This document shows positions 13,906 through 55,634 of a stretch of 64,000 bases of DNA, piece by piece (position 1 is the stretch's first letter; each line of letters starts with the position of its first letter). Made by a program: the position numbers and the translations under genes. This stretch comes from Thiotrichaceae bacterium (lineage in GTDB: Bacteria; Pseudomonadota; Gammaproteobacteria; Eutrophobiales; Eutrophobiaceae), in NCBI GenBank assembly GCA_012960105.1, contig DUBV01000051.1, positions 15,898 through 79,897 of the forward strand, given 5' to 3'. The notes under the pieces are model-generated. The model worked only from the letters and a program-made list of their open reading frames with translations, searched no databases and was not told the DNA's origin.

Positions 13906-13973
13906 GAACTTCGATTGGTTTATTAAATTTGCCGAATAGAGATAGCTGAGGATAAAAAAGTTTTTTAATGCAC

Positions 13974-39612: not shown

Positions 39613-39688
39613 AATCTTTATTCCAAATAATTAGATCTAATGATAATGCAGGAAATTGAGATTGGCTAGGACAGGCACACTTTACACA

Positions 39689-40087
39689 ATGCGACTTGAT
39701 AAATGGCTTTGGTGTTCGCGTTTTTATAAAACGCGTGCTCAGGCAGCCGCCGCCATCAAGGGAAATAAAATACGCGTAAATGGCCTTCCCGTAAAAGCAG
39801 CAAAAATTGTTCGTGTTGATGATGAAATTAAATTAAAGAAAACACCTTATCAATACACCTTTACAATTCTTAAATTATCGAAGAATCGACTCTCCGCTAG
39901 CTTAGCTGCTCATCTTTACAAGGAAAACAAAGACAGTATTCAGGCAAGAGAAGAACTCAGCGTGCAGATTAAAGCTGAAAATGCGTCCTATCCGAGAACC
40001 ATAGGACGACCGACGAAACGTAATAGACGTGAAATCATTCGATTTACCCGGATTGTTAGAGAGGATGGCGAATCTAATAACAGCTAA
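39689..40087 (+). CDS. hslR: Ribosome-associated heat shock protein Hsp15 (S4 domain)
   Basis: MRLDKWLWCSRFYKTRAQAAAAIKGNKIRVNGLPVKAAKIV is an S4 RNA-binding domain with a basic C-terminal tail. The ORF track starts at 39656. The Met at 39689 matches Hsp15. Confidence 0.8.
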   Translation: MRLDKWLWCSRFYKTRAQAAAAIKGNKIRVNGLPVKAAKIVRVDDEIKLKKTPYQYTFTILKLSKNRLSASLAAHLYKENKDSIQAREELSVQIKAENASYPRTIGRPTKRNRREIIRFTRIVREDGESNNS

Positions 40088-41418
40088 ATGCTTATAAACC
40101 CCTGATTGCGTTCAATCAAATAATAGTAAATACCTAAAGTAACACCACGTATGGCAATAAATAACGTGAACGCCAACCATAAACCATGATTACCCAAGTA
40201 TTGAAACACGTACCAAAGCGGCAAAAAGAAAACAAAAGTACAAATCAACATCGAGTTTCTCATTTCAGGACCACGTGTTGCACCGATAAAAATACCGTCT
40301 AGTAAAAAGCACCAGACTGAAATCAAAGGCAAGACCACCATCCACGGCAAATAAAGCAAGGCAACTTCCCGAACAGGTTCAATATTAGTTAACAAATTAA
40401 TCATGCCTTCACCGAGCAACCAGTAAAACAGGGTAAAACACATGCCAAATACAAATGACCATTTTAACGTTAGCGATACCGCTTGATTAAACATATTTTT
40501 ATTTTTCTGCCCTATTGCTTTGCCGACCAAGGCCTCTGCTGCATGATTAAATCCATCTAGTGCTAAAGCCATTAATAGATAAAATTTCAGTAATATAGAA
40601 TTTGCAGCTAATACTAAATCACCTTGCTTCGCCCCTTCACGTGTAAAAAAAGCAAAAACAAAAATCAAACAAATTGTTCTAATAAAAATATCATGATTTA
40701 AACTTAAGAAATTTCGCAGTTTCTTAATGTTTAATATTTTTTCTAGCGACCACTCACCATATTGCCCTGATGGCTGCACGGACAATTGTTTATTAATAAC
40801 AATAAACGCCATCAACACGCCGCTATATTGAGAAATGACTGTTGCTAATGCCACACCACGTACATCCATATCCATATAAACAACAAAGACGACATCAAGA
40901 ATAATATTAATCACATTAACGACAATACCAATACGCAGCACCGCCATCGCATTTTGCATTCCTAGCAACCAACCATTGACAGAAAACAAAATCATTAACG
41001 CCGGCATACCCCAAATCAACCATTGGCAATATACCAAAGCATAATGTTTAACTTCCGAACTACCTTCTAAAAAAGAAAGACCAATATTAAAAACAGGTTT
41101 TTGAAACAGAAGAAATATAAATGCTATACCTAATCCAACAAGTATCGACTGCATTAAAATAGTACGCACTTCTGTCGCATCATTTTTGCCATGCGCTTGA
41201 GCAACAATACCTGTCGTGCCCATCCGCAAAAATCCCATGCCCCAATAAAGGAAATCAAATATTATCGTGCCCACAGCAACGCCACCTAAATAGACAGCGG
41301 TATCCAGATGCCCGATAACAGCCGTATCGACAAGACCTAATAAGGCCATGCTGATATTGCCAATGATCATTGGTCCGGCTAGCAGCCAGAATGCGCGATG
41401 TTGACTCTTATCCATCAT
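40084..41418 (-). CDS. MATE family efflux transporter
   Basis: 444 aa, 12 TM, DinF/NorM-like N-terminal motif (LLAGPMIIGNISMALLGLVDTAVIGHL). Confidence 0.8.
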   Translation of the reverse strand: MMDKSQHRAFWLLAGPMIIGNISMALLGLVDTAVIGHLDTAVYLGGVAVGTIIFDFLYWGMGFLRMGTTGIVAQAHGKNDATEVRTILMQSILVGLGIAFIFLLFQKPVFNIGLSFLEGSSEVKHYALVYCQWLIWGMPALMILFSVNGWLLGMQNAMAVLRIGIVVNVINIILDVVFVVYMDMDVRGVALATVISQYSGVLMAFIVINKQLSVQPSGQYGEWSLEKILNIKKLRNFLSLNHDIFIRTICLIFVFAFFTREGAKQGDLVLAANSILLKFYLLMALALDGFNHAAEALVGKAIGQKNKNMFNQAVSLTLKWSFVFGMCFTLFYWLLGEGMINLLTNIEPVREVALLYLPWMVVLPLISVWCFLLDGIFIGATRGPEMRNSMLICTFVFFLPLWYVFQYLGNHGLWLAFTLFIAIRGVTLGIYYYLIERNQGFISI

Positions 41419-41473
41419 AACGAAGTGAAGAATTAAAGAAGTTTTTATTCTATGGGTTTATTTGATCGGAGTA

Positions 41474-42073
41474 TTAGATTGGAGTATTCCAGTTTCCATC
41501 AAAGAAATTATCGCCAAGTGAATTTCGCGCGCGCTCATTATATTCACGTTCTTTCATATCCTCAGGAATATCACTTTCAGCTAATTGATAACCTACCGTC
41601 ATCATCGCCATCAGTTCATACTGCTCCGGTATCTCAAATGCTTCTCTGGTCATATCAACATCAAAGCCACCCATTTGATGCACCATTAATCCTAATGAAG
41701 CCGCTTGTAGACATAAGTTTTCTGAAGCCGCACCCGTATCATATTGTCCCCAGCGATTAGGGCTGCCATTTTTCGACACCTTCGAATCAGCACACGCCAA
41801 AAACAATAAAGGGGCATACTTAGCCCAGGATAGATTACCTGCAACTAAACACGACATCGCTTTTTCCCAAGCAGAAACATTCGTCGCTTTATCAAAAACA
41901 ATAAATCGCCAAGGTTGATCGCCAAAACAGGAAGGTGCCCAACGTGCGGCTTCCATAAGTGAAACTATATCTTCACGGGCAACAAGCTTCTCAGCATCAT
42001 AAGCCCGACCACTCCAACGAGAAGCGATTAATTCATTAATAGTGGTTTTTGTCTCAATTTTCTTATTAAACAT
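41474..42073 (-). CDS. Nitroreductase family protein (YdjA-like)
   Basis: 199 aa, RWSGRAY..PSCFGDQPWRF motif of the NAD(P)H nitroreductase fold. Confidence 0.75.
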   Translation of the reverse strand: MFNKKIETKTTINELIASRWSGRAYDAEKLVAREDIVSLMEAARWAPSCFGDQPWRFIVFDKATNVSAWEKAMSCLVAGNLSWAKYAPLLFLACADSKVSKNGSPNRWGQYDTGAASENLCLQAASLGLMVHQMGGFDVDMTREAFEIPEQYELMAMMTVGYQLAESDIPEDMKEREYNERARNSLGDNFFDGNWNTPI

Positions 42074-42148
42074 GTGTTATCAAACTCCCGTTTTGCTACT
42101 CTTAATGCAATGAATATAACAACTAATAAATAAAATATTTTATATATC

Positions 42149-43081
42149 ATGTCAGACATAGAAATATATCAAAAACTCTCTGCCAATATTGAAAAAGTAA
42201 TACAGGGACAGTCTATATCGATTAGAAAACTCCTGGCCGCATTCTTTAGCAATGGGCATGTCTTGCTTGAAGATGTTCCCGGCACCGGTAAAACGACGCT
42301 GGCAAAGGCGCTAGCAAAATCTATCGATATCGAATTCCAGCGTATACAGTTTACACCCGATTTATTGCCTACCGATATTCTTGGGGTATCTATTTTCAAT
42401 CAACGTGACCATGATTTTGAGTTTCATCAAGGTCCCATATTCAGCAATATACTACTGGCAGATGAAATCAATCGTGCTTCGCCACGCACACAATCAGCGT
42501 TACTAGAAGCCATGGGCGAACGTCAGGTCAGTATTGAACGCAATCAATATCAGCTAGATGAGTTATTTTTTGTTATTGCCACACAAAATCCGATTGAATA
42601 TCACGGCACCTATCCTCTACCCGAGGCACAAATGGATCGTTTTGCTATGCGATTTGGACTTGGCTATGTCAATCCGGAAGAAGAAATTGCCATACTCGAT
42701 AATCAAAGCAGTCATCACCCTATTGATGATCTAACACCCTGCATTAGTAAAACCGATGTTATTCACCTAAAACAACACGTTACTAAAATTAACATCAGTG
42801 ATGAAGTTAAACATTACATGGTTAACCTTGTACGAGCGACCCGAGAAACAGAAGGAATTATCAATGGTGCCAGCCCACGTGCCTCACTATCGTTAATGAA
42901 AGCAGCGCAAGCACTAGCCTTGTTTGATGGCCTGGATTATGTCACGCCTGATCATGTGCAGGAAATAGCCATTCCTATCATGTCACATCGTATCATGATG
43001 GATTCACAAGCGCGTTTCTCTGGCAATAGCAGCGATCAAATTATTGAAGCGATCCTGTCCAACATAGCTGTTCCCACTTAG
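42149..43081 (+). CDS. MoxR family AAA+ ATPase
   Basis: 310 aa with Walker A GVPGTGKTT, Walker B LLADEINRASPRTQSALLEAM and sensor motifs. Confidence 0.88.
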   Translation: MSDIEIYQKLSANIEKVIQGQSISIRKLLAAFFSNGHVLLEDVPGTGKTTLAKALAKSIDIEFQRIQFTPDLLPTDILGVSIFNQRDHDFEFHQGPIFSNILLADEINRASPRTQSALLEAMGERQVSIERNQYQLDELFFVIATQNPIEYHGTYPLPEAQMDRFAMRFGLGYVNPEEEIAILDNQSSHHPIDDLTPCISKTDVIHLKQHVTKINISDEVKHYMVNLVRATRETEGIINGASPRASLSLMKAAQALALFDGLDYVTPDHVQEIAIPIMSHRIMMDSQARFSGNSSDQIIEAILSNIAVPT

Positions 43082-43097
43082 GACAGAGATTAAAAGC

Positions 43098-44441
43098 ATG
43101 TTACGTAGACTGCTGTTTGCAAACTTCAAACTGGTTTACAAACTAAGTCAATGGATGCGACAACGTTTTACCGCTGCCGGCATGTTAATCCTTTTAACCA
43201 TGCCTGTTGCTGGCGTGTTTGGCTTTGATACGCGCTCGACACTTTCCTTCCAAATATTCTCTATTACCTTAATACTTTTAATTACCTCAATTAGTTTTTC
43301 ATTATTATTTCGAGGAAAGTTTTCTATCGATAGAAAATTACCCGACTACGGCACAGTCGGCACAGCTTTGTATTATTCTTGCGCAATTAAAAATAATAAT
43401 AAAAAACCACGTAAAGGTTTGGTGTTGATTGATGATTTAAATAGTCCGTTTCCGACATTGGATGAATTTATTCATGCAAAAGATCCACTAGATAAGATTC
43501 GCAATCGTGTCGATCGAATTATGGGTTACCCGCGATTAATGAACACCATAAGAAAACTACGCGGCGCTGCCATAGCGCCCGTGTCAATTGACTATATTGC
43601 TGAAAATAGCGAAACAGAAGAAAACATTAAACTAATCCCCTTGCGTAGAGGCTATCTTTATTTCGAAAAAATCAGGTTAGCCCAAGCTGACCCATTGGGT
43701 TTATTTCAAGCACAAAAAATATTTAAGAAAAAAGATAAATTATTAATACTGCCTAAATTATATAAAACGCCTACTCTAAACACGCATGGTAAACGCACCT
43801 ATCAACAAGGTGGCATCAATAACGCGTCATCAATCGGCGATTCACAAGAGTTTATTTCTCTACGCGATTATCGACCCGGCGATCCTATTCGTTCTATACA
43901 TTGGAAAAGCTTTGCCAAAACAAACCACCTTGTTGTTAAAGAATATAATGATGAATTCTTTATCCGTTATGGCCTAATCCTCGATACTTGGCTTGACGAT
44001 AAATCAGAAGACATATTCGAAGATGCCATTTCTATAGCAGCATCATTTATGACCGCACAAAAAGAACAAGATGCCCTGTTAGATTTAATGTTTATAGGTA
44101 ACAACACCTATCGATTTACATCAGGTCGTGGCTTAGGCGGGACAGAGAACATCATGGAAGTACTTGCTTGTATAAAGCCTGTCTATGAAAGCAATATAAA
44201 AAGCATGGAAGTCATGCTGAACGAGTATATGCATGAATGTAGTGCCTTAATATGCATTTTGCTGGATCTTGACAAACCCCGCCAACGATTATTAAGAACC
44301 CTTGCTAGCTATAACGTACCTATAAAAGTATTAATCATTAGCGATACTGAAAAATTAGAAATAGTATACATCCCGCACTTAACTGATATCAATGTCATTC
44401 ATCATGATCGCTTACAACAAGATCTCGATGTCCTGTCGTAA
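43098..44441 (+). CDS. DUF58 domain protein (vWA-like, MoxR partner)
   Basis: 447 aa with N-terminal TM segments and a DUF58 core (DYRPGDPIRSIHWKSFAKTNHLVVKEY). Confidence 0.75.
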   Translation: MLRRLLFANFKLVYKLSQWMRQRFTAAGMLILLTMPVAGVFGFDTRSTLSFQIFSITLILLITSISFSLLFRGKFSIDRKLPDYGTVGTALYYSCAIKNNNKKPRKGLVLIDDLNSPFPTLDEFIHAKDPLDKIRNRVDRIMGYPRLMNTIRKLRGAAIAPVSIDYIAENSETEENIKLIPLRRGYLYFEKIRLAQADPLGLFQAQKIFKKKDKLLILPKLYKTPTLNTHGKRTYQQGGINNASSIGDSQEFISLRDYRPGDPIRSIHWKSFAKTNHLVVKEYNDEFFIRYGLILDTWLDDKSEDIFEDAISIAASFMTAQKEQDALLDLMFIGNNTYRFTSGRGLGGTENIMEVLACIKPVYESNIKSMEVMLNEYMHECSALICILLDLDKPRQRLLRTLASYNVPIKVLIISDTEKLEIVYIPHLTDINVIHHDRLQQDLDVLS

Positions 44442-44444
44442 GCT

Positions 44445-46439
44445 ATGAATAATATAAATATAAATATAAAAACAGTTAAAAATCGCTTAAAAGCAGCACC
44501 TCTGGGTTTAACCTTAGCAAGCTTACTACTATGGGGATGGCAAACAGACTATCTGTTTTATGCCATTATTATGGGTGTATTGCTAGAACTGCCCTACTTT
44601 ATAAAATGGCGAATTGAATTTAGTGAAAAGGATATCAATCAACTCGCCGATCTCAGCGGCATCCTATTTTTTATTGTTACTGTTTATGTCTTCGTAAACT
44701 ATTCATTTCAAGGAATATATAAAATCCTTGAATTGCTTCCATTTGCTTTAGTTATACTCATGCTTGCGCAAAATTACAGTATGCAAAATGGGATCAGAAC
44801 TTCAGCCTTGTTTATCAGTATCCGCCGTATGGGTAACAAAGCCGACTCTGATATTCTTTATGACACCAATATCAGCCTGCCTTATATTTTTCTTTGCTTG
44901 ATCTCAGCTAGCTCCGGCAATAAATATAACGAAGTGTTTTTCTTTTCTAGCTCTTTCATCATTGTATGGACACTCTGGGGATTAAGAGCAAAACACCATT
45001 CCATTATTTCCTGGCTTACACCGATAGCCATTGTCATATCCATATCATTCTTAACTCAACAAGGCTTACAGACTTTACAAAATAACGCAGAAATTTTCTT
45101 TCTCGATCTATTCGAGCAATATGGTTTTTCCAGTCGCGATCCAGATCGCGCCAGAACCACAATAGGTTCATTAGGACGATTAAAATTATCTGATCGTATT
45201 GTTTTAAGAATAAAATCAGACCATGAGCTAGACACGCCGCTCTATTTTCGAGAAACATCATACAGTCGCTATCACCACGGGACATGGAGCAATCCTCAAG
45301 TTGAATTCGATATCATAGAAAAAACTCCTGCAAAAAAAGAATGGCGTTTAAATAAACAATTAAATGACACTGGGAATTTTGATATCGCAATCTACTTGCA
45401 AGATCAGTCATCTATACTTCCCGTGCCAGATAATATAAACACATTATCCGGAAAAGATTTAATTCAGGTGGAAACTAGCATCTATGGTTCAACAAGAATC
45501 GAAGCACGTGAAGGCTGGATTAGTTATCGACTAGGATATTCTGACAAAGATTTTGTTGAAGTTGAACCTACGGCAGATGACTTAGTAATCCAACTCAACT
45601 ATCAAAATGATTTTAAACTAGTCGCAGAAGAATTAGAACTCTATACAAAATCACCAGAACAAATCATTAATACTGTAAAACAATATTTTAAAGATAACTT
45701 TTATTATTCGATCACACAAAATCAACGCTACACAAGAGGACAGTATTTAACAAAGTTTTTATTTAAAGATAAAAAAGGACACTGCGAATATTTTGCCACA
45801 GCCACCGCCCTACTTCTACGCGAAGCCGGCATACCTACACGCTATACCATAGGTTATTCAGTACAAGAATACAGCGCATGGCAAAAGATGTACTTAGTGC
45901 GTGCACGCCATGCACATTCATGGCTTAAATATTATATCAACGGAAAATGGCATAAGATGGATACAACACCATCAATATGGGCACCAATGGAAGCTGCAGA
46001 CAGAACCATAATGGAACCGTTCTTCGATCTACTTTCATATTTGCGCTATAAAATAACCGGCAGTGAAATTGAATCAAATACCGAGTCAAATGATTGGCTT
46101 ATATGGCTACTCATACCATTAATGGCATATTTAGTATGGCGCTTTTATAATAAACAACGAGTAGATACGAAAAAGACTCGCAACGATAATTTTGACACTA
46201 AACTAAAACGATTTGGTATGGACTCCCCTATTTATCCGCTATTACAAAATCTGGAACAAGAGGCAGCGACAAGACTACAGGGAGAAACATTAAGCAAATG
46301 GATAAAACGAATATTGCCAATAACAGAGGCAGAAAAATATCTCCAGTTGATTAAGTTACATAATCGTTATCGGTTTAATCCTGTTAGTAATAAGCGTCAT
46401 GACAAACAATCAATAAAAGAGCTATTAGATCGCGTCTAA
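44445..46439 (+). CDS. Transglutaminase-like membrane protein (DUF3488 + transglutaminase core, TgpA-like)
   Basis: 664 aa. Multi-TM N-terminus, Cys protease-like core (GHCEYFATATALLLREAGIPTRYTIGY, later H/D) and a C-terminal TM. Confidence 0.8.
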   Translation: MNNININIKTVKNRLKAAPLGLTLASLLLWGWQTDYLFYAIIMGVLLELPYFIKWRIEFSEKDINQLADLSGILFFIVTVYVFVNYSFQGIYKILELLPFALVILMLAQNYSMQNGIRTSALFISIRRMGNKADSDILYDTNISLPYIFLCLISASSGNKYNEVFFFSSSFIIVWTLWGLRAKHHSIISWLTPIAIVISISFLTQQGLQTLQNNAEIFFLDLFEQYGFSSRDPDRARTTIGSLGRLKLSDRIVLRIKSDHELDTPLYFRETSYSRYHHGTWSNPQVEFDIIEKTPAKKEWRLNKQLNDTGNFDIAIYLQDQSSILPVPDNINTLSGKDLIQVETSIYGSTRIEAREGWISYRLGYSDKDFVEVEPTADDLVIQLNYQNDFKLVAEELELYTKSPEQIINTVKQYFKDNFYYSITQNQRYTRGQYLTKFLFKDKKGHCEYFATATALLLREAGIPTRYTIGYSVQEYSAWQKMYLVRARHAHSWLKYYINGKWHKMDTTPSIWAPMEAADRTIMEPFFDLLSYLRYKITGSEIESNTESNDWLIWLLIPLMAYLVWRFYNKQRVDTKKTRNDNFDTKLKRFGMDSPIYPLLQNLEQEAATRLQGETLSKWIKRILPITEAEKYLQLIKLHNRYRFNPVSNKRHDKQSIKELLDRV

Positions 46440-46459
46440 TTTTTTAGTTAAATTTTAAT

Positions 46460-47116
46460 CTATGAATAGACGAACAAATAGTTACCTTCGATTTTATATT
46501 TAATTTTAGTAAGCGGCTGTTGATTCCCATTTTCTATACATTCACCATTCTCTAGGTTGAACTTCCAGTGATGCATTGGGCACTCCAGTGTCATTCCATC
46601 GATTGCATCACCGGGAATATTTGAGGCCTTATGTGGACAGATACTATCGAAGACTATAAAGTCATCACCGTCTCTTGAGACAAAACAAGCTTGCTTGCCA
46701 TATTCAAAGCGTGACGCACCTTCTTTTATATCAGTAATCTCAATTAACTTATGCCATTGTTTTTTTTTAGTTTGAACTGCCTTGGTCTGTTCTATCTTAC
46801 CCAATTTTTCCGGATCAAATTCAGGAAGTTCCATTTTCAGGATTATGTCTACCGCCCAGATGATTTTGCTTAGTCCTAATGTCGGCATACAAACCAACAT
46901 GGCATCTAATATTTCATCGGCACTATTACCTTCTTTTAATGCCCTCTTTAAATATTGTTTTAAACCGGCTTCTGTTTGCGCATTAACTTTGGTTATTACT
47001 GATAATAAAAATCGGGTTTTATCATCAAGATGTTTACCTCCCTCTTTTAAAAATTTAAAATAAGGTTGTATCGCGTCTTTTCTAACGTCTAATAAATAAT
47101 CCAGTGCATCACTCAT
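46460..47116 (-). CDS. Fusion protein: carboxymuconolactone decarboxylase (CMD/AhpD-like) domain + Rieske [2Fe-2S] domain
   Basis: C-terminal Rieske boxes CPH...(17)...CPMH (CPHKASNIPGDAIDGMTLECPMHHWKF). The N-terminal ~110 aa have a CMD-like helical pattern (ILDAMLVCMPTLGLSKIIWA). The track ORF starts at 47152. The Met at 47116 avoids the overlap, leaving the upstream stop 2 nt before this ATG. Confidence 0.6.
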   Translation of the reverse strand: MSDALDYLLDVRKDAIQPYFKFLKEGGKHLDDKTRFLLSVITKVNAQTEAGLKQYLKRALKEGNSADEILDAMLVCMPTLGLSKIIWAVDIILKMELPEFDPEKLGKIEQTKAVQTKKKQWHKLIEITDIKEGASRFEYGKQACFVSRDGDDFIVFDSICPHKASNIPGDAIDGMTLECPMHHWKFNLENGECIENGNQQPLTKIKYKIEGNYLFVYS

Positions 47117-47615
47117 TTGTATATTGTACCTCTTCTTGTTCTTCTTCTGCATCTTCCCATGCTATAGGTGGCATTTTTACAGTAACTTCACCGATTTTAT
47201 TTGCATAGATATCGTCCATTAAGAAAGTCCTGGTCGGATTATCGTAATTCTGATGCAGTAACATAATATTTAATTTCGGATCAGTTGTTTTTATTATTTC
47301 TTCTTCCATTTCAAATAATATCGTTTTCTTAATAACCTGGCGCACAGGGATATGCACCGAAACAATACCGACACGATGGCTATCTCTTCGAGTACATGCA
47401 TTGGTATTATGTTTTTGAAAACAACGTACACCTACTTCCATAACAGGCGATCCCGTATCTGCATTCACTGTACGAAAACGTAACTCGACAAAGTCCAGCC
47501 TTACATCCAGTTTCGTACCGAATAACGCAAAATAATCTGCAGTAACAAAAGAAGCTGATATAAATATAAAAAATGAAACTACATATATTGCTATCCTAAC
47601 TGCTTTTTTATTCAT
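47109..47615 (-). CDS. Hypothetical membrane-anchored protein with acidic C-terminus
   Basis: 168 aa with N-terminal TM (IAIYVVSFFIFISASFVTA) and an EEEQEEVQYTNE tail. Translationally coupled between the antiporter and the CMD-Rieske gene. Confidence 0.5.
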   Translation of the reverse strand: MNKKAVRIAIYVVSFFIFISASFVTADYFALFGTKLDVRLDFVELRFRTVNADTGSPVMEVGVRCFQKHNTNACTRRDSHRVGIVSVHIPVRQVIKKTILFEMEEEIIKTTDPKLNIMLLHQNYDNPTRTFLMDDIYANKIGEVTVKMPPIAWEDAEEEQEEVQYTNE

Positions 47616-47620
47616 TCCAT

Positions 47621-48790
47621 TTAGTCTCTACGTAGTCGATCAGTTACTGAAATTGGCGTCGGGTATCGCATTACAATAATGTATGACGATACTGCGAAAG
47701 TAAGTAATGTTGCTAATTGAATTAAGTAAGACGTTTTATCGTCGATAAAACCTGATTCAACAGCAAGAACAGCTATTAATAAAGAAAACTCACTGATCTG
47801 CCCTAACCTGAATCCTGTTTCATATGAAACGTATTTTTTCTCGCCTTGTTTTAGTAATAGCCAGCCAAAGACTAGCGGTTTGAATATCAACACCATCGCC
47901 GCTAGCAAGATTGCCGGAATATATATTTCATTAATGACTGACATATTAAATCCCGCACCTAGTGAAAAGAAAAATATAATTAAAAAGAAATCTCGCAACG
48001 GCTTTAAACTCTCAGTAATAAAAAGTGCAATGGGACAAGACGCTAGAGTGACACCCGCGACTAAAGCACCTATTTCAGGAGACAAACCGATATAATTTGC
48101 TAATTCGGCAATACCAAGACACCATGCGATTGCTAATAAAAATATATACTCATGTATTTGATCAAAACGTTGAATTAACTTTACCAATACATATTTTTCT
48201 AATACGTAAGCAATACCGATTAACATAGGCAGATAAACTAATTGCAGAGCAATATCTGAAACCAGGTTTCCACCTTTGCCATAACCTTGTAGCAATAACA
48301 AAATAACAATAGCGATTAAATCCTGTATCAATAAAACACTGATAATAATCTGCCCGGTATGACGATGATGTAATATTGTCGTCGGCAATAATTTCAAACC
48401 AATAATGGTACTTGAGAACATCATAACCGCACCGATTAACATCGCTTGTAACAGTTCGTATCCAAATACAAATCCTATAAGAAAACCAAACACGCAAAAG
48501 ATCGCTGAACTGGCAAAGGTAACTACTATCGCTTCTCTTAACATTTTCCATAATTGCTGTGGAAGTAAATCCAGACCTAATAAATACAGGAGAAAAATAA
48601 TACCTATATTAGAAATATCGCTGATCAATTCAGCATCATTTACAAAGCCCAGTCCCCAAGGGCCCAGTATTAAACCAAGTGCGATGTAAGCAATTATCAT
48701 TGCCTGTCGTGCATACAAGGCAATCGTCGCGAACACTGCTGCGCCGGTAAATATTAAAAATATTGAAAATTCTATTGATTGCTCAGCCAT
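47621..48790 (-). CDS. Monovalent cation:proton antiporter, CPA2/Kef-type membrane domain (no KTN domain)
   Basis: 389 aa polytopic membrane protein. The Na+/H+-exchanger family N-terminus (GLILGPWGLGFV, IFLLYLLGLDL) resembles the KefB/KefC membrane domain. Confidence 0.75.
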   Translation of the reverse strand: MAEQSIEFSIFLIFTGAAVFATIALYARQAMIIAYIALGLILGPWGLGFVNDAELISDISNIGIIFLLYLLGLDLLPQQLWKMLREAIVVTFASSAIFCVFGFLIGFVFGYELLQAMLIGAVMMFSSTIIGLKLLPTTILHHRHTGQIIISVLLIQDLIAIVILLLLQGYGKGGNLVSDIALQLVYLPMLIGIAYVLEKYVLVKLIQRFDQIHEYIFLLAIAWCLGIAELANYIGLSPEIGALVAGVTLASCPIALFITESLKPLRDFFLIIFFFSLGAGFNMSVINEIYIPAILLAAMVLIFKPLVFGWLLLKQGEKKYVSYETGFRLGQISEFSLLIAVLAVESGFIDDKTSYLIQLATLLTFAVSSYIIVMRYPTPISVTDRLRRD

Positions 48791-48805: not shown

Positions 48806-51800
48806 TCATTCCATTTGTTGATACTGCTGCCACATTCTATCCATGCGTTTCATTGAAACGGGGACATTCGTTTTTAATTCTTGTGTAAACAAGGATATTC
48901 GTAATTCTTCAATTAGCCAACGGTAATCATATAAGGATGTCGTAAAACACTCTGTTTCATAGGCATTATCTACTAATTTCTTGATTCGATTCCAGTGTTC
49001 GCTAATAAGCAAGGTATTTTGTCTATCTTTCTCAAGCCCACCAGTCAGTTTTTCGAGACGTTTTAATATGGAATCCAGATATCTTGGATACTGGATAAGA
49101 TATTTATAAGGAATATCATCAATAAAACCAGCAAAGATTAAATACTCCATCTGACCTTCAATATCGGCAACCGTATTACCATGCTTTAAAATATCGGCAT
49201 CAGAAAGTCGGGCCAATACGCTAATCTGTTTTTGTAATATCGTTTCTAACAAAATACATACTTTTTCAGAATTCATTAATAAATTCTGTTTATCCTGAGA
49301 CAGGCTTGCATAGAAATGGTCCTTTTTTCTAATCGGTTCCTGCTTATACAAAAAAGTTTCGTCTAATGTCAGGTTGACTATTTCACCTATTAACTCGTCT
49401 CTCGTCCCTATATTGCTATACATCAACGCTAGCTTTTCAATGCCACGAAGATTTTTGCGCATATATTTAATTTCTTTTGCCAGTTCCTTCTTGAATAAAC
49501 CTCTTAGGCCATATCTTAAATAATATTCTGCGCTACCCTGATTATCGAATGCGTGGCGATAGACTTTACCCTCTTCCTCTATCAATGAGGGATAAACTGT
49601 AATGCTATTGCCATCGGTTTCTATTTCCTGTTTTATCGGTAACTCGTCAAAATCCCACGAGGATATTTCTTCTGTGCCATAAACATCATCGTATAATTCG
49701 ATAAAGGCATTATCTGCTTTGTCCGAAAATGATTCCTTTAATACGCTAATATCTTTTCCTGAACCTAGCACCGCATTTTCTGCATCAAGAATTCGATAAT
49801 TTATTTTTAAATGTTCTGGTAATGATGTATCAGACCAATCATTTTCTTTTATTTCTATGGAACGTGTTCTCAATATATAGGCGGATATATTTTTCTTTAA
49901 AGACACGCCGCGGTTATTAATATTGCGCGCACATTCCTTAGCAACATCCGGGATAGGTACTATTTTTGTTCTGATAGACTTAGGCAACGATCGTAATAGC
50001 AACACAATCTTTTCTTCTAACAAGCCAGGCACCAGATAATCCATCTGCTTATCATTAAATTGATTTAATACAGCAACAGGAATATCTATGCTTAAACCAT
50101 CTTCGCTTTGACCTGGTTCGAACTTATATTCAAGCGGCATACTGATGCCTTTAGATTGAATATAATCTGGGTATGATATTTCAGTAACGTCACTTGCCTC
50201 ATGACTCATGATTTGTTCTTTATCAAAAAACAACGCTTGTTTTTGTTCTTGACTAAGCTTCTTCGTCCACACGGCAAATGATTGGCCATCATAAACATCC
50301 GCTGGCAACGCTTTATGATAGAAACTATATATAGCTTCCTCATCAATTATATCTGGACGACGCGATTTAATTTCTAATTCACGAATCTCATTAATGACTT
50401 GATTATTATGTTTAAAAAATTTCGCACTGGATTCCAGATCTCCATCAACAAGTGCATTCCTTATAAATAATATTTTCGATTCAACAGGATTGACACGGCC
50501 ATAGTTAACTCTTTTTCCGGCAACCAACGTCATACCGTATAAACTAATTTTTTGTAACGCGACCACACTCGAACTTTTACTTTCCCAATGTGCACCGGAA
50601 TAATCGTACTTTAATAAATGTTTTGCGCTGCTTATTAACCAATTTGATTCTATCTTGGCAACATTGCGCGCATACAGTCGTGAAGTCTCAACCAAATCCG
50701 CGGCAACGATCCACTTCGGTTTATTATTAAACTGTGCCGATGCAGGAAATATATTTAACTTAATATCTCTAGCACCGGTGTATTCATGTTTATCAGATAA
50801 GAAAGCAACATGACTCGGCATGCCGGTTAATATTGCACAGTGCACATTTTGATACGTAGCCGGCTCTGTATTAATAGAAAACTTCATCTCAGTACAGACA
50901 TGGCGTAACTGTCGATGAATATCGGCCCATTCACGCATACGCATATACGATAAAAAGTTTTGCTGGCATAACTTTCTTAATTTATTTTGCGATAACTTTT
51001 TTGTTTGTTTCTGATAAAAATACCAGAGATTAACAAACCATAAAAAATCTGAATTCTCATCATCAAACTGTTGATGCGATTCGTCTGATTTTTGTTGCTT
51101 ATCTATAGGTCGCTCTCTCGGACTTTGGATACTTAAAACGCCAACAATAATTAACATTTCATTCAAACAATTAAATTCATTCGCCGCGAGTAATAATCTT
51201 GCGTGTCTCGGATCTAATGGAAACCGCGCTACTCTTCTACCAATAGACGTCAGATTATCTTGTTTATCCAGCGCGTTAATTTCTTGTAACACACGCATGC
51301 CATCACTGATTAACTTTTTCTCTGGCGGGTCGATGAAAGGAAATTTTTCTATCTCACCAATATTCAGAGCCTTCATTTGTAAAATTACCGAAGCGAGATT
51401 AGTACGCAATATTTCTGGCTGCGTATATTCACTACGAGCGTTGAAATCTTCTTCGCTATACAAACGAATGCAAATTCCTTCGCTGGTACGACCGCAACGT
51501 CCCTTACGTTGATTTGCCGCCGCCATTGATATTCTTTCTATGGGCAAACGTTGTACTTTACTTTTATAGCTATAACGACTGATGCGCGCCATACCGCTAT
51601 CAATAACGTAACGGATACCGGGAATGGTCAATGATGTCTCGGCAAGATTTGTTGCCAACACCACATGACGGCGCTTATGCGGTGCAAAGATTTTGTTTTG
51701 TCGCGACGAACTTAAACGTGCATACAGCGGCAGAATATCGGTATCGGGCAGATTTTGCTTGCGCAATAACTTGTCTGTTTCGTGTATCTCGCCCTCGCCT

Positions 51801-52702
51801 TCTAAAAATATGAGTATGTCACCCATATCAAAGCTAGCGAGTTCATTAATGGCATCCAGTATTGCGCCTTCGCGGCCGCGTGATTCCTCATCACTTTCGT
51901 CGATATCTTCCTCTATAGGTCGGTATAAAACGTCAACAGGCCAGCTTCGTCCAGAAACTTCGATTACTGGTGCATTATTGAAGTGATCGGAAAAACGCGT
52001 TACATCAATAGTTGCCGAAGTAATAATAACTTTCAGATCCGGCCGTTTCGGCAACAATTGTTTTAAATAACCGAGGATAAAATCTATATTCAGACTGCGC
52101 TCATGAGCTTCATCTATAATTATCGTATCATATTGATTTAAATAGCGATTTTGTTGCAATTCGGCTAATAAAATTCCGTCTGTCATCAATTTGATATAAG
52201 AATCTTTATTGGTGTTGTCCTGATGACGTATTTTATAACCAACGTGTGTTCCTAGCTCAGAATCCAGTTCATCGGCAATGCGCTTAGCTACGGTTCTTGC
52301 GGCGAGTCTTCTCGGCTGAGTATGAGCAATATATCCTTCAATTCCTCGGCCTAGAGTCAAACAAAGCTTGGGAAGCTGTGTTGTTTTACCTGATCCAGTC
52401 TCACCACAAATAATAACCACCTGATTATTTTGTATTGCTTCAGAAATAGCCTGCGCATGCTGATTAATAGGTAAATTTTTATCAAATTGGCAATTTGGCA
52501 GGTTTGCTTGCCGATCTAGTTTGGTTTGGATTGAATTTTCAATATTTCGACTTAGAACATCCCAATCAGACTGCTTAAGCTCCGTTCGCTTGCGTAATTG
52601 CTCAAATTTGCACGTAAGATTATGGCGCTCAGAAGCCCATACCTCGGCTAATCGAGCACGTAATTTGTCGCTTATATCGGACTTTTTATTTGTTTTATTC
52701 AC
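48806..52702 (-). CDS. hrpA: ATP-dependent RNA helicase HrpA (DEAH-box)
   Basis: 1298 aa with GETGSGKTTQLP, DEAH (IIDEAHERS), helicase C, HA2/OB domains and a long HrpA-specific C-terminal extension. Confidence 0.92.
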   Translation of the reverse strand: MNKTNKKSDISDKLRARLAEVWASERHNLTCKFEQLRKRTELKQSDWDVLSRNIENSIQTKLDRQANLPNCQFDKNLPINQHAQAISEAIQNNQVVIICGETGSGKTTQLPKLCLTLGRGIEGYIAHTQPRRLAARTVAKRIADELDSELGTHVGYKIRHQDNTNKDSYIKLMTDGILLAELQQNRYLNQYDTIIIDEAHERSLNIDFILGYLKQLLPKRPDLKVIITSATIDVTRFSDHFNNAPVIEVSGRSWPVDVLYRPIEEDIDESDEESRGREGAILDAINELASFDMGDILIFLEGEGEIHETDKLLRKQNLPDTDILPLYARLSSSRQNKIFAPHKRRHVVLATNLAETSLTIPGIRYVIDSGMARISRYSYKSKVQRLPIERISMAAANQRKGRCGRTSEGICIRLYSEEDFNARSEYTQPEILRTNLASVILQMKALNIGEIEKFPFIDPPEKKLISDGMRVLQEINALDKQDNLTSIGRRVARFPLDPRHARLLLAANEFNCLNEMLIIVGVLSIQSPRERPIDKQQKSDESHQQFDDENSDFLWFVNLWYFYQKQTKKLSQNKLRKLCQQNFLSYMRMREWADIHRQLRHVCTEMKFSINTEPATYQNVHCAILTGMPSHVAFLSDKHEYTGARDIKLNIFPASAQFNNKPKWIVAADLVETSRLYARNVAKIESNWLISSAKHLLKYDYSGAHWESKSSSVVALQKISLYGMTLVAGKRVNYGRVNPVESKILFIRNALVDGDLESSAKFFKHNNQVINEIRELEIKSRRPDIIDEEAIYSFYHKALPADVYDGQSFAVWTKKLSQEQKQALFFDKEQIMSHEASDVTEISYPDYIQSKGISMPLEYKFEPGQSEDGLSIDIPVAVLNQFNDKQMDYLVPGLLEEKIVLLLRSLPKSIRTKIVPIPDVAKECARNINNRGVSLKKNISAYILRTRSIEIKENDWSDTSLPEHLKINYRILDAENAVLGSGKDISVLKESFSDKADNAFIELYDDVYGTEEISSWDFDELPIKQEIETDGNSITVYPSLIEEEGKVYRHAFDNQGSAEYYLRYGLRGLFKKELAKEIKYMRKNLRGIEKLALMYSNIGTRDELIGEIVNLTLDETFLYKQEPIRKKDHFYASLSQDKQNLLMNSEKVCILLETILQKQISVLARLSDADILKHGNTVADIEGQMEYLIFAGFIDDIPYKYLIQYPRYLDSILKRLEKLTGGLEKDRQNTLLISEHWNRIKKLVDNAYETECFTTSLYDYRWLIEELRISLFTQELKTNVPVSMKRMDRMWQQYQQME

Positions 52703-52928
52703 TATGAAAGCACTAAAAGTGTTAATTATTCTTATTTAAGCAAGCTAATCTATTGATTTTAATAAAGTATTTGTTTGTAATTTATTGATAGACTGATAGG
52801 ATAATCAAATCTAAAATATAAATTTTACATGAGAAATATTTTCTACGTTAAGCAGTAATTAATAATAAATAATATCAATAATTTAAACTACTTTTCTCGA
52901 ACTATTCGAAATGGAGATTTCTTAACGT

Positions 52929-54857
52929 ATGTCACTTGAATTTGAATTAGCTGGCTCACAAATTGATGGTGCTAGAGACTATCAAGAAGATGCGTTTCTT
53001 ATTACTCATCTAACCGATGCCGATGGTAAACCTAGCGCGCTGGTCATTATAGCTGATGGTATGGGTGGTCACGCTGCCGGTAATGTCGCTAGTAATATGG
53101 CTGTTCAAGCTTTCAATAAGCACGTATCCGCTAATTATCCCTCGAAAAGTATTCCCGACATACTCGAACAAGCTGTCGTTAAAGCAAATAATTCGATAAA
53201 AGAAACCGTTGCCGAAACCCCTGCTCTATCTGGCATGGGTTGTACCATGGTTGCCGCCATACTTGAAGAAGGAAAAATGTGGTGGGTCAGCGTTGGTGAC
53301 AGCCATTGTTACCTTATTAGAAATAAAGAATTAGCCAAGAAAAATGCGGATCATAGTTATGGTGGCTTTCTGGATCGTATGGAAGCAGAAGGCACACCGT
53401 TAGAAGCAGAACCAGGTTTGTCTCGTAATATGCTAATGAGTGCGGTTACTGGTGAAGACATCAATGAGATTGATGTTTCAGAAGAACCTTTTGAATTACA
53501 CGATGGTGATAAAGTACTTTTGTGCAGTGATGGTTTAGATACTTTAAGCGCTGGTAAAATTATTCAATATTCGGATTGGTCTGAATCTCCCAAAGAATGT
53601 GCTGACGCATTAATGACCGCAGTTGAAGAAGCTGACATGCCGCGCCAGGATAATACAACTGCGGTTGTAGTGAGCGTATTAAATAATGCAGTAACCCCAA
53701 CTCCCGTCGTTGAAAAACCAGAAGAAATTGGTGAAGCCACGGATGAAATTTCCCTAGAGGAAGTTACTACCGTTGAAGAATCATTAGCTGAAGCAATACA
53801 AAATGCAGCAGATCAAGAGGCTATTGATGACTTTGAAGAGCCCAAAAGTAAAACAGGTTTAATTATTGGTATTGTTGCCGTACTACTTATTGCTGGTGCA
53901 GGTGCCTTTTTCATGATGGGAGGAAAATCCTCGCAACCATCAGAACCTATGGTTGCTGACGTTGAAATGGAAGTTGTAGAAGATGAGGCTATTGAGGAAG
54001 AGGAAGAAGAAGTAGCTGAATCTAAAACAGAAGAAGTGAGCAAAGTTGTTGCTGAAGAAGAAAAGAAAGAACCTGTTGCAGCGATAGTAGAAACTAAAGC
54101 AGAAGTTAAAGAGTCTGAAGAAACATCAGGTAAAACAATTCAAGACGCTTTGAAATCTGGCGGAAAAGGTCCTGTGATGGTCATTATCCCGGCAGGTAAA
54201 TTCAATATGGGCAGTAAGAGCTCTAGAAATTCGGATCAACGCCCTCGTCATGAAGTAACTGTGGCTAAATTTGCTATTAGCCAACATGAAATCACTTTCG
54301 CTGAATATGATGTTTTTGCTAAAACGAAAGGCAAAAAGATTCCTGATTCACTTTATATGGATAGAGCTACATCTCCTGTAATTTATGTTCCTTGGGATAA
54401 CGCGTATGCATATACCAAATGGTTGTCTAAAGAAACAGGCAAAAAATACAGATTAGCTAGTGAAGCAGAATGGGAATACATGGCATCAACAGGTAAAAAG
54501 AGTCCGTTCTGGTGGGGTTATAAAGAAGAGCCTAACCGAGCTCACTGCTTTGGTTGCGGCACAGGTTTAAACCCCCGTAAACCAACTAAGGTGGGTAGTT
54601 TTGAGCCTAATGAATTTGGCGTATTTGATACTGCAGGCAATGTTAGCGAATGGGTTTATGATTGCTGGCACAAAAATTACAAGGACGCACCAACAGAAGC
54701 TGAAGTATGGGAAGGTGGTGATTGTACTTTTCGTGCTGTCAGAGGTGGCGCCTACAGTACTCCGCCACAATCTATTCAGCATATAAAACGCGACAAGTTT
54801 AAATCCGATAAAGCCTACGACCATATCGGTATTCGTGTCCTTAGAGAGATTCCTTAG
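52929..54857 (+). CDS. Membrane-spanning PP2C-family Ser/Thr phosphatase fused to a C-terminal FGE-sulfatase (SUMF1/formylglycine-generating-enzyme-like) domain
   Basis: 642 aa. Residues 1-250 are PP2C (ADGMGGHAAGNVAS, VSVGDSHCYL, LLCSDGL, NTTAVVV). An acidic linker contains one TM segment (GLIIGIVAVLLIAGAGAFFMMGG). Residues 400-642 are the FGE-sulfatase domain (YRLASEAEWEYMA, GNVSEWVYDCW, RAVRGGAY). Confidence 0.8.
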   Translation: MSLEFELAGSQIDGARDYQEDAFLITHLTDADGKPSALVIIADGMGGHAAGNVASNMAVQAFNKHVSANYPSKSIPDILEQAVVKANNSIKETVAETPALSGMGCTMVAAILEEGKMWWVSVGDSHCYLIRNKELAKKNADHSYGGFLDRMEAEGTPLEAEPGLSRNMLMSAVTGEDINEIDVSEEPFELHDGDKVLLCSDGLDTLSAGKIIQYSDWSESPKECADALMTAVEEADMPRQDNTTAVVVSVLNNAVTPTPVVEKPEEIGEATDEISLEEVTTVEESLAEAIQNAADQEAIDDFEEPKSKTGLIIGIVAVLLIAGAGAFFMMGGKSSQPSEPMVADVEMEVVEDEAIEEEEEEVAESKTEEVSKVVAEEEKKEPVAAIVETKAEVKESEETSGKTIQDALKSGGKGPVMVIIPAGKFNMGSKSSRNSDQRPRHEVTVAKFAISQHEITFAEYDVFAKTKGKKIPDSLYMDRATSPVIYVPWDNAYAYTKWLSKETGKKYRLASEAEWEYMASTGKKSPFWWGYKEEPNRAHCFGCGTGLNPRKPTKVGSFEPNEFGVFDTAGNVSEWVYDCWHKNYKDAPTEAEVWEGGDCTFRAVRGGAYSTPPQSIQHIKRDKFKSDKAYDHIGIRVLREIP

Positions 54858-54878: not shown

Positions 54879-54918
54879 TTAAGAGTATCTATAAAGTAAT
54901 ATTATTAGATGCTCTTAA
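54879..54918. terminator. Putative bidirectional terminator hairpin between convergent genes
   Basis: 12-bp imperfect stem ttaagagtatct/agatgctcttaa with an AT loop. Overlaps the stop codon of the Rdx gene. The flanking T-run is weak. Confidence 0.35.
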
Positions 54919-55202
54919 GCCTCGCTATGCCCTAGAGGCATATCTGGCTCTATTCTGTCGCGGATCAATTGCTTTAATTCTTTAGATTCAGGAAATCTTT
55001 CCTGTTCTTTCCGTGAGAAAATTTCTTCGCCGTCAACTAACACAGTGAATACACCACCTGATGACGGAACTAAGGCTAATTCCCCTATCTTATCGGTAAA
55101 CGTCATTAATAATTCCTGAGCCAGCCAGTTTGCTCTGAGAATAAAACGACACTTAGTACAATAATGAATTTCTATACGTGGTGAATTAATTTTTGCAACC
55201 AT
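54915..55202 (-). CDS. SelT/SelW/Rdx family protein (CxxC, non-selenocysteine form)
   Basis: 95 aa. RIEIHYCTKCRF (CxxC redox motif in the Rdx fold) and C-terminal QLIRDRI. Confidence 0.7.
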   Translation of the reverse strand: MVAKINSPRIEIHYCTKCRFILRANWLAQELLMTFTDKIGELALVPSSGGVFTVLVDGEEIFSRKEQERFPESKELKQLIRDRIEPDMPLGHSEA

Positions 55203-55241: not shown

Positions 55242-55634
55242 TTGGAGACAAGCATGTCATCAACGATAAAAAAAATACTGTGTTTAACTTCACTCTTATT
55301 ATTTTTTCCCATGAGTGCATTTGCCGAAATAAAAATTATACTAGGCATTCCGGCTTATAACTACAGCCATAATTACTCGAATCATCACTCAAACAATCAT
55401 TACTATAAAAAAAATAAATATAACAAATATAATTACCCTCCCTATTCATACCGCAACTATAATTATAAATATACTAATCCGCATAAAAAGTATTTTTCTA
55501 AAAACCACCGTAGCTATAGTAGTTACAACCCTTACTCAAATTATAATCATTTCCAACGTAATAGAGATGCTTACAAACGGGGTTATAAAGCTGGACTTCA
55601 CAAAAGCAAACATCATTATAAATTCGGACATTAA
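55242..55634 (+). CDS. Secreted low-complexity Tyr/Asn/His/Lys-rich protein
   Basis: 130 aa with signal peptide (ILCLTSLLLFFPMSAFA|EIK). The mature ~105 aa are about 20% Tyr with many N/H/K (YNYSHNYSNHHSNNHYYKKNKYNKYNYPPYSYRNYNYKY...). Confidence 0.55.
   Translation: METSMSSTIKKILCLTSLLLFFPMSAFAEIKIILGIPAYNYSHNYSNHHSNNHYYKKNKYNKYNYPPYSYRNYNYKYTNPHKKYFSKNHRSYSSYNPYSNYNHFQRNRDAYKRGYKAGLHKSKHHYKFGH

Follow-up and report, generated by a model that had tools for sequence, protein, structure and literature searches.

A predicted transmembrane PP2C phosphatase with a PvdO-like outer domain, and the exchange of its enzyme half for a kinase at the same locus

Introduction

How single-pass bacterial serine/threonine kinases and phosphatases pass a signal across the membrane is poorly understood. 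We know of no ligand for the outer domain of PstP of Mycobacterium tuberculosis. This protein is described as a transmembrane PP2C (PMC12088040). True formylglycine-generating enzymes (FGEs) bind Cu(I) via two cysteines, and the FGE fold also works as a non-enzymatic protein-binding scaffold in Tsi3 (bioRxiv 10.1101/2021.05.21.445229). The same work reports that PvdO, a further protein of this fold, has a glutamate essential for its function. PvdO is needed for dihydropyoverdine oxidation and always occurs together with PvdP, and the purified protein showed no cofactor and no activity (PMC6206403). Here, a gene whose product joins a PP2C domain to an FGE-fold domain is analyzed; it lies at 52929..54857 of a 64-kb stretch of DNA (contig DUBV01000051.1), which was examined as a whole and is called the window below. 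In literature searches, no paper describing a PP2C–FGE fusion was found, and the fusion is not listed in a 2025 census of bacterial PP2C architectures. The PP2C-transmembrane-FGE architecture is already present in sequence databases under automatic names; what is new is the exchange of phosphatase for kinase on one sensor at an orthologous locus.

Domain architecture of the phosphatase

The gene and its parts are arranged as follows, with the source of each assignment in brackets.

52929..54857, plus strand: whole gene with ATG start, encoding a predicted bitopic PP2C-transmembrane-(PvdO-like FGE-fold) protein, 642 aa plus stop (open reading frame, ORF, list)
52703..52928, unstranded: divergent intergenic region between hrpA and the gene, 226 bp, 21% GC, presumed promoter region (sequence)
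52929..53684, plus strand: predicted cytoplasmic PP2C (PPM) catalytic domain, aa 1-252 (Pfam, PDB matches, AlphaFold2 (AF2) model)
53685..53843, plus strand: predicted cytoplasmic acidic variable linker, aa 253-305 (31% D+E, AF2 predicted local distance difference test (pLDDT) below 40)
53844..53924, plus strand: juxtamembrane KSKTG motif and predicted single transmembrane helix, aa 306-332 (hydropathy, junction alignment, homology boundaries)
53925..54128, plus strand: predicted periplasmic acidic variable linker, aa 333-400 (composition, conservation)
54129..54854, plus strand: predicted periplasmic PvdO-like FGE-fold domain, aa 401-642 (Pfam, profile against the PDB, AF2, Foldseek)
54543..54557, plus strand: HCxxC motif, H539-C540-F-G-C543 (family alignment)

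Pfam matches to PP2C_2, SpoIIE and PP2C at aa 7-250 and to FGE-sulfatase at aa 415-639 all exceed their gathering cut-offs within the 642-aa ORF, in line with the original prediction that one protein carries both domains. A protein from JGI metagenomes (P0001) is 100% identical to it. In 73 of the 79 related loci with an extractable gene, a single intact ORF of 609-709 aa has the same order of parts, and the remaining six comprise three cuts at contig ends and three frame changes. Two genes fused, or separated, by an unnoticed frameshift, the outcome against which the original prediction had warned, are thereby ruled out. Frame changes within the ORF are found in the orthologs L061, L065 and L066. 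The gene looks monocistronic, being divergent from hrpA and convergent with an Rdx/SelW-like gene 57 bp downstream. The sequence GGAG stands about 13 nt 5' of its ATG, and a scan of the upstream region for consensus promoters and terminators gave no matches above those in shuffled sequences.

By its sequence, the protein is a member of the PPM/PP2C family, with Pfam scores of 50.2 bits for PF13672 (gathering cut-off 24), 42 for PF07228 (25) and 30.6 for PF00481 (20.3). Among solved structures, it is nearest to PstP and to tPphA of cyanobacteria (E ~1e-24). The putative metal ligands D21, D43/G44, D124, D201 and D241 align with D18, D34/G35, D119, D193 and D231 of tPphA, and these positions are invariant in 73-74 of the 74 aligned family members, so the active site is intact, as had been claimed. 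The domain is modelled by AF2 with a pLDDT of ~85-95, and the phosphatase half looks to be an active, Mn2+/Mg2+-dependent enzyme. The top NCBIfam model for this half is that of Stp1/IreP (NF033484, 6e-45); its score of 153.5 bits does not reach the equivalog cut-off of 230 bits, and the protein is thus related to Stp1/IreP and is not an equivalog. The closest PP2C matches (PstP, tPphA, Stp1) are enzymes of the eukaryotic-like serine/threonine phosphatase (eSTP) type, not of the partner-switching types.

Hydropathy analysis (Kyte-Doolittle) of the window protein reveals a single strongly hydrophobic segment at aa ~309-331, with a 19-residue mean of 2.7, and no hydrophobic segment at the N-terminus; no signal peptide is present. 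A central transmembrane helix was found in all 74 aligned members, in 69 of which it is the sole strongly hydrophobic segment, and none of the 74 has a hydrophobic segment at its N-terminus. This agrees with the single helix originally described. From the hydropathy and the absent signal peptide we infer an N-in/C-out topology, with PP2C in the cytoplasm and the FGE-fold domain in the periplasm, which would place the two on opposite sides of the membrane as foreseen. The four invariant cysteines of the outer domain (see below) fit an oxidising compartment. Both linkers are acidic, with a D+E content of 31% on the cytoplasmic side and of 32.5% over aa 333-412 on the periplasmic side. Across the family, the cytoplasmic linker varies from 25 to 89 aa, and the periplasmic one from ~66 to 146 aa in the members in which the pattern could delimit it. 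Column conservation is 0.80 for PP2C, 0.72 for the outer domain and 0.59 for the transmembrane region, against 0.35 for the cytoplasmic and 0.42 for the periplasmic linker; the catalytic and sensor domains are strongly constrained and the linkers are free to vary.

The outer domain matches PF03781 (FGE-sulfatase) with E 2.7e-47. A profile built from 30 outer-domain sequences and searched against the PDB found PvdO (5HHA, 1.2e-54), ToxD (4e-34) and human FGE (6e-31), in alignments reaching the C-terminus. In the AF2 model of the whole protein, the linkers, the transmembrane helix and the distal half of the ectodomain came out poorly, and the ectodomain was therefore modelled again as a domain alone; with a more diverse alignment, this model had a pLDDT of 92.2 and a predicted TM-score (pTM) of 0.90. 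Its best Foldseek match is again PvdO (TM-score 0.87, root-mean-square deviation 2.6 A, 35% identity), above the human and bacterial FGEs (TM-scores of 0.75-0.79). The Cu(I)-binding catalytic cysteine pair of true FGEs (Cys336 and Cys341 in the human enzyme), on which the SUMF1-like function first proposed for this domain depends, is not kept. Cys336 is aligned with Thr611, a position occupied in the family by Ser in 47 members, Thr in 17, Asn in 6 and Ala in 2, Cys341 falls within an insertion found in FGEs only, and the pair was present in 0 of the 309 related domains examined. A true FGE is thereby ruled out, the SUMF1-like assignment gives way to a PvdO-like one, and the annotation of such proteins as formylglycine-generating enzymes is corrected.

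An ortholog of PvdO was considered and ruled out as well. The NCBIfam PvdO model (NF051459) scores 166.3 bits on the window protein, far below the equivalog cut-off of 500. The gene context is wrong, with no pyoverdine-cluster genes (PvdP, PvdM, PvdN) in the window or the related loci, and the glutamate of the PvdO motif WGEPP is aligned with the Ser/Thr/Asn/Ala position of the family. Pfam scans also revealed no sulfatase gene within the window. With a score below the cut-off and neither pyoverdine nor sulfatase genes nearby, the outer domain is, as judged from sequence and model, a PvdO-like FGE-fold module, neither an FGE nor a PvdO equivalog. Residues D567, G570 and E574, which we take to be the ligands of FGE Ca site 2, are invariant or nearly so. 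Four cysteines are invariant in the family, C540, C543, C579 and C599, the last two of which are common to PvdO. The first two belong to the HCxxC motif, with C540 and C543 in 74 and H539 in 72 of the 74 members. Of 266 other FGE-like domains from the representatives, only 8 have the motif, and PvdO lacks it in the alignment. From the alignment and the residue numbering of the FGE structures, the HCxxC loop is presumably the counterpart of the Ca-site-1 loop of human FGE.

Relatives of the outer domain also occur without a cytoplasmic enzyme. Two such proteins, P0214 (278 aa) and P0266 (380 aa), are 50-54% identical to it and keep HCxxC; P0266 is anchored by a transmembrane segment, and P0214, possibly a fragment, seems to stand alone.

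A kinase in place of the phosphatase

In a word-indexed search over 5.8 billion proteins, more than 120 clusters were found at 60-76% identity to the window protein, all of full length and with the same Pfam set. Such proteins bear the JGI name 'formylglycine-generating enzyme.../serine/threonine protein phosphatase'. The supposition that the architecture is rare or unrecorded does not hold, as this is a large conserved family, annotated automatically by both JGI and NCBI. A scan of one genome per GTDB species detected a relative of the phosphatase gene in at least 102 species genomes. The carriers are nearly all uncultured marine or freshwater Gammaproteobacteria, including Ca. Eutrophobius; the sole cultured one, Methylohalomonas lacus (strain HMT 1, locus L052), opens the way to experiments. 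When 1.84 billion representatives at 50% identity were searched exhaustively with HMMER, 45 clusters among the best 150 had PP2C followed by an FGE-like domain. Two giant variants, P0166 (1737 aa) and P0167 (2026 aa), contain two cyclic nucleotide monophosphate (cNMP)-binding domains, a rhodanese domain, PP2C, a transmembrane segment, a very long spacer and the FGE fold, and tie the same receptor phosphatase to cyclic-nucleotide input.

The family occupies a conserved slot. Upstream lies a Na+/H+ exchanger gene, with or without hrpA, and downstream are Rdx, an AmpG-like major facilitator superfamily (MFS) gene, CYTH and moaA/fdhD/mobA/mobB/moeA. Orthologs of the exchanger flank the phosphatase gene in 44 related loci, and no signalling gene is among the conserved neighbours of the slot. 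The family is vertically inherited at one chromosomal locus. In the window, the slot is anchored by two genes:

47621..48790, minus strand: Na+/H+ exchanger gene, upstream anchor (Pfam PF00999)
54915..55202, minus strand: Rdx/SelW-like gene, downstream anchor (Pfam PF10262)

The search among representatives also returned P0192, a protein of 604 aa in which a Pkinase domain, a transmembrane segment and an FGE domain follow one another. In the ectodomain, it shares 60-64% identity with the window clade and is less close to more distant phosphatase members. The kinase-transmembrane-FGE family comprises ~23 clusters, is abundant in marine metagenomes, keeps HCxxC and is carried by a low-GC marine sister lineage. 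On the two longest kinase contigs (L081 and L082), the kinase gene occupies the exact slot of the phosphatase gene, in the order Na+/H+ exchanger (minus strand), kinase gene (plus strand), Rdx (minus strand), a 510-aa MFS gene, moaA, fdhD, mobA, mobB and moeA. The proteins of the flanks are 58-76% identical to those of the window, with the exchanger at 73-74%, and the ectodomain is 55-59% identical. The synteny between the window and the kinase contigs extends further, to YkuD, AcrB, a membrane-fusion protein, MoCF_biosynth and a nitroreductase on one side and MoaE on the other.

The junction between the two halves of the kinase form is sharp. Similarity of P0192 to the phosphatase family begins at residues ~299-307, at the juxtamembrane motif [KE]SK[TM]G, and the shared module consists of the transmembrane helix, a shortened acidic linker (~25 aa) and the whole sensor. 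Residues ~3-303, on the other side of this point, are 57-77% identical to kinases without an FGE fusion, which belong to a conserved operon described below, and the Gly-loop, VAxK, HSDFKPSN and DFG motifs are all present. Judged from these alignments, the helix and sensor of the kinase form are orthologous to those of the phosphatase family, and the enzyme half was exchanged in place. The original prediction had called the protein a mirror image of kinases with FGE ectodomains; such a kinase gene, with the orthologous sensor, does sit at the orthologous locus of the sister lineage. A kinase/phosphatase 'push-pull' pair sharing the sensor within one genome was also considered and was dropped, because both genes sit in the same syntenic slot.

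The direction of the exchange was approached with a neighbour-joining tree of concatenated flanks (727 columns, 23 taxa, 500 bootstraps), in which the kinase lineage and the window clade group together against six other PP2C-bearing lineages with 95% bootstrap. Single markers with more taxa gave larger numbers. For the exchanger, the smallest split uniting window and kinase excludes a median of 21 PP2C-bearing lineages, 21 of them in at least 97% of replicates; for MoaA, it excludes a median of 19, 14 of them in at least 89%. The lineages excluded include the deepest members of the phosphatase family. Twenty ectodomains of the phosphatase family are more distant from that of the window protein than the best kinase ectodomain is, and a tree built from the ectodomains alone is unresolved. 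On the most parsimonious reading of these distance trees, which have no independent outgroup and in which the root could lie on the kinase branch, the PP2C form would be ancestral at the locus and the kinase form derived.

The surroundings of the slot differ between lineages. The hrpA gene (48806-52702) is present at the slot in some of them and missing in others. When compared with L081 6004-8443, positions 39656-47615 of the window have extra genes between MoCF_biosynth/nitroreductase and the Na+/H+ exchanger, namely those for an S4-domain protein, a MatE transporter, a MoxR AAA_3 ATPase, DUF58, a transglutaminase-like membrane protein, a CMD+Rieske protein and a 168-aa ORF without family match. 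Downstream of the Rdx gene, a 130-aa ORF (55242-55634, plus strand) has a signal-peptide-like N-terminus and a low-complexity body extremely rich in Tyr, Asn, His and Lys, e.g., YNYSHNYSNHHSNNHYYKKNKYNKYNYPPYSYRNYNYKY; it has no family match, has a conserved counterpart in a single related locus (L080, 68%) and may not be a real gene. Elsewhere in the window, a stand-alone HNH endonuclease gene of 190 aa (29245-29817, plus strand) stands between mazG and an aminotransferase gene and may be a small mobile or selfish insertion.

Candidate partners of the phosphatase

The window has 55 ORFs of at least 120 aa, of which 49 were scanned with Pfam. Of the other six, hrpA, moaA, mobB and moeA were named by synteny and by the Pfam hits of their orthologs, and two are internal and overlap genes that were scanned. 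The scans detected no kinase, the phosphatase itself gave no Pkinase match, and the catalytic-loop motif of Hanks kinases is absent from all six frames, which bears out the statement that the window has no serine/threonine kinase.

Outside the window, the nearest relatives of the kinase domain that was swapped in lie in an operon with the order PpiC-type rotamase (minus strand), guanylate-cyclase+FHA protein (~300 aa), soluble PP2C (~206-266 aa), Hanks kinase (363-849 aa) and one or two large FGE-fold proteins. The operon adjoins mlaA; one of its FGE-fold proteins carries TPR, and one has a C-terminal domain 35% identical to the ectodomain of the window protein. It was found on six contigs of related Gammaproteobacteria:

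L083, 4473-10350: rotamase/cyclase-FHA/PP2C/kinase/FGE-protein operon
L084, 3635-9839: same operon
L086, 446-10496: same operon
L087, 2920-7341: same operon
L088, 833-4686: same operon
L089, 238-5781: same operon

Its conservation on these six contigs means that FGE-fold proteins are repeatedly linked to serine/threonine signalling in this group, and it offers a testable partner system. One metagenome-assembled genome (MAG) carries both the operon, on CAYGQN010000113.1, and a phosphatase locus (L054), on CAYGQN010000370.1. A phosphatase, P0116, and an operon kinase, P0302, lie on different contigs and not on one ~2.75-Mb chromosome.

FHA domains are readers of phosphothreonine. The window encodes an FHA-domain protein of 292 aa (13974-14852, minus strand; FHA at aa 27-79, Pfam 31.7 bits), whose presence implies that this organism uses phosphothreonine signalling. 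That it acts downstream of the phosphatase, as first suggested, is a possibility to which nothing but its FHA domain points. The original prediction had taken it for a fusion of FHA and cyclase. The FHA part stands; the cyclase half was not detected in Pfam, NCBIfam or PDB sequence searches. The C-terminal 200 aa have no family match and contain the class-III-cyclase-like string GDGYLAVF. The gene is directly upstream of one for CpdA, a 3',5'-cAMP phosphodiesterase (NCBIfam 244.7 bits, cut-off 225), and the pair, spanning 13096-14852 on the minus strand, may form a phosphothreonine-gated cyclic-nucleotide module. The FHA protein was also considered as an ortholog of the cyclase-FHA protein of the operon, which is ruled out by the lack of BLAST similarity and the reversed domain order.

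Proposed function and alternative explanations

The explanation that we favor, at a probability of roughly 60%, is that of a PstP-like receptor phosphatase which counteracts Hanks-kinase signalling, has the outer domain as its sensor and is controlled by clustering or localisation. An active Mn2+/Mg2+-dependent PP2C in the cytoplasm would be tethered by a flexible acidic linker to one transmembrane helix, and a second flexible linker would connect the helix to the periplasmic PvdO-like domain. The outer domain, having lost FGE chemistry, most probably binds or senses a periplasmic peptide, protein or small molecule, and HCxxC would be either a structural disulfide or a redox- or metal-sensitive site. 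The phosphatase would act on proteins that the Hanks kinase(s) of these bacteria have phosphorylated on threonine or serine; the best candidate for such a kinase is that of the operon described above. It is proposed that the catalytic domain is controlled by ligand-dependent clustering or membrane localisation and not by a rigid conformational relay. The long, variable and predicted-disordered linkers, together with the presence of the same transmembrane and sensor module on a kinase, make clustering or localisation the likelier mode; a rigid relay is disfavored because it is hard to picture 50-80 disordered residues serving both a phosphatase and a kinase. The locus offers a natural comparison: in most lineages the same sensor and helix drive a phosphatase, in one lineage a kinase. 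The mechanism is thereby constrained, as it has to serve both enzymes across a floppy linker. For the window protein, we infer that it is active as an enzyme, what its substrates and ligand are and how it is regulated, and with this ligand-regulated dephosphorylation in which the outer domain would control the phosphatase.

Several observations speak against this explanation. The charge bias flanking the transmembrane segment is weak, and the full-length AF2 model does not build this segment as a helix. Neither in the window nor in 80 phosphatase loci (DNA up to 6 kb either side) is the phosphatase linked to a kinase or substrate gene. The co-occurrence of phosphatase and operon rests on a single MAG, in which binning can be wrong, and the operon-bearing assemblies JAANSS, JAZGIG and JBRGMO lie outside the list of species representatives, which makes them uninformative on co-occurrence either way. 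An outer domain as strongly conserved as this one, HCxxC included, would fit an enzyme too, and we know of no ligand for PvdO-like domains outside pyoverdine maturation.

A further-reaching proposal is offered tentatively, with the odds against it. The transmembrane helix and the PvdO-like HCxxC module may be an output-agnostic periplasmic sensor, and one lineage may have reversed the sign of its serine/threonine input by exchanging, in place, the phosphatase for a kinase copied from the resident kinase operon. If so, the sensor would act via ligand-dependent clustering or localisation, it would read a defined periplasmic cue, possibly redox or metal via HCxxC or else one of the FGE-fold proteins of the operon, and the phosphatase and the operon kinase would share substrates.

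Other explanations start from the outer domain. It could be a redox or metal receptor in which HCxxC, as a thiol/disulfide switch or a Cu/Zn site, sets the activity of the phosphatase (in the sister lineage, of the kinase). The near-invariance of H539, C540 and C543, their rarity elsewhere and their retention after the kinase swap fit this idea, as do the apparent position of the motif in place of Ca site 1 and the ability of the FGE fold to host thiolate metal sites, true FGEs binding Cu(I) with two cysteines. However, a periplasmic CxxC is most simply a structural disulfide substituting for the lost Ca site, the HCxxC region has the lowest pLDDT of the ectodomain model (76-88), and the context contains no redox or metal genes; we regard this receptor as unlikely. 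The protein might also be bifunctional, the outer domain being a periplasmic oxidoreductase or modifying enzyme that acts on a peptide or metabolite and is merely co-anchored, with no signal between the halves. Its closest relative, PvdO, is required for dihydropyoverdine oxidation, and its conservation of 0.72 includes many invariant polar residues. Against this stand the lack of cofactor and activity in purified PvdO (PMC6206403), the Ser/Thr/Asn/Ala of the family at the Cys336-aligned position where PvdO has Glu, the PvdO score of 166 against a cut-off of 500, and the absence of pyoverdine, siderophore or sulfatase genes nearby. The long-conserved fusion to a signalling enzyme, followed by exchange for the opposite enzyme, argues for functional coupling of the halves, and a merely co-anchored enzyme appears distinctly improbable.

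Closer to the favored explanation is a constitutive, membrane-tethered housekeeping phosphatase, whose outer domain would anchor or position it via an envelope protein or a peptidoglycan-associated structure and would sense nothing. FGE-fold proteins do have structural or binding roles in PorK/GldK and Tsi3, the disordered linkers make conformational signalling unlikely, and the gene looks monocistronic among housekeeping genes. However, the appearance of a kinase on the same module suggests that the module gives information usable with either sign. A constitutive anchor differs from the receptor phosphatase only in whether binding is regulated, and the present data separate neither from the other; we give the anchor little credence. 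Of the remaining possibilities, a partner-switching phosphatase of the RsbU/SpoIIE type, acting on a STAS-domain anti-anti-sigma factor, is suggested by the Pfam SpoIIE match (PF07228, E 1.3e-10). The Stp1/IreP model (6e-45) and PstP/tPphA match better, no STAS, anti-sigma or sigma gene is present in the window or the related loci examined, and the kinase that replaced PP2C is a Hanks kinase and not one of the RsbW type, which makes this possibility very remote.

Comparison with known systems

Among described proteins, PstP of M. tuberculosis (1TXO, 2CM1) shares with the window protein the order of an N-terminal cytoplasmic PP2C, a juxtamembrane linker, one transmembrane helix and an extracytoplasmic C-terminal domain; in the PP2C alignment with PstP, all metal ligands are matched. 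The window protein comes from a Gram-negative bacterium and differs in its PvdO-like FGE-fold outer domain, predicted to be periplasmic, in the strongly acidic character of both linkers and in the position of its gene outside a kinase operon, whereas pstP lies in pstP-rodA-pbpA-pknA-pknB. In both sequence and structure, the outer domain is closest to PvdO of Pseudomonas aeruginosa (5HHA), which likewise lacks the FGE cysteine pair and has the pair corresponding to Cys579/Cys599. However, PvdO is soluble, periplasmic and part of the pyoverdine cluster, has no HCxxC and carries Glu where the window family has Ser/Thr. FGEs, human SUMF1 and bacterial, have the same fold (TM-scores of 0.75-0.79) and Ca-site-2 ligands presumably kept in the window protein as D567/G570/E574; the catalytic cysteine pair is missing from the latter, and the window has no sulfatase gene. 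The Tsi3 FGE-like type VI immunity proteins resemble it in having the FGE fold, lost catalytic residues and, in their case, a bound protein (bioRxiv 10.1101/2021.05.21.445229), but they form a separate clade without fusion to a signalling enzyme, and the window gene has no type VI secretion context. Hanks kinases with FGE ectodomains, named 'bifunctional serine/threonine-protein kinase/formylglycine-generating enzyme family protein' by NCBI, have the same succession of cytoplasmic catalytic domain, transmembrane helix and FGE-fold outer domain; their catalytic activity is opposite, and the window protein has no kinase domain. In the subfamily of ~604 aa (P0192, P0271-P0292), the likeness extends to a transmembrane helix and sensor that, by alignment, are orthologous to those of the phosphatase (55-64% identity) and to the same chromosomal locus.

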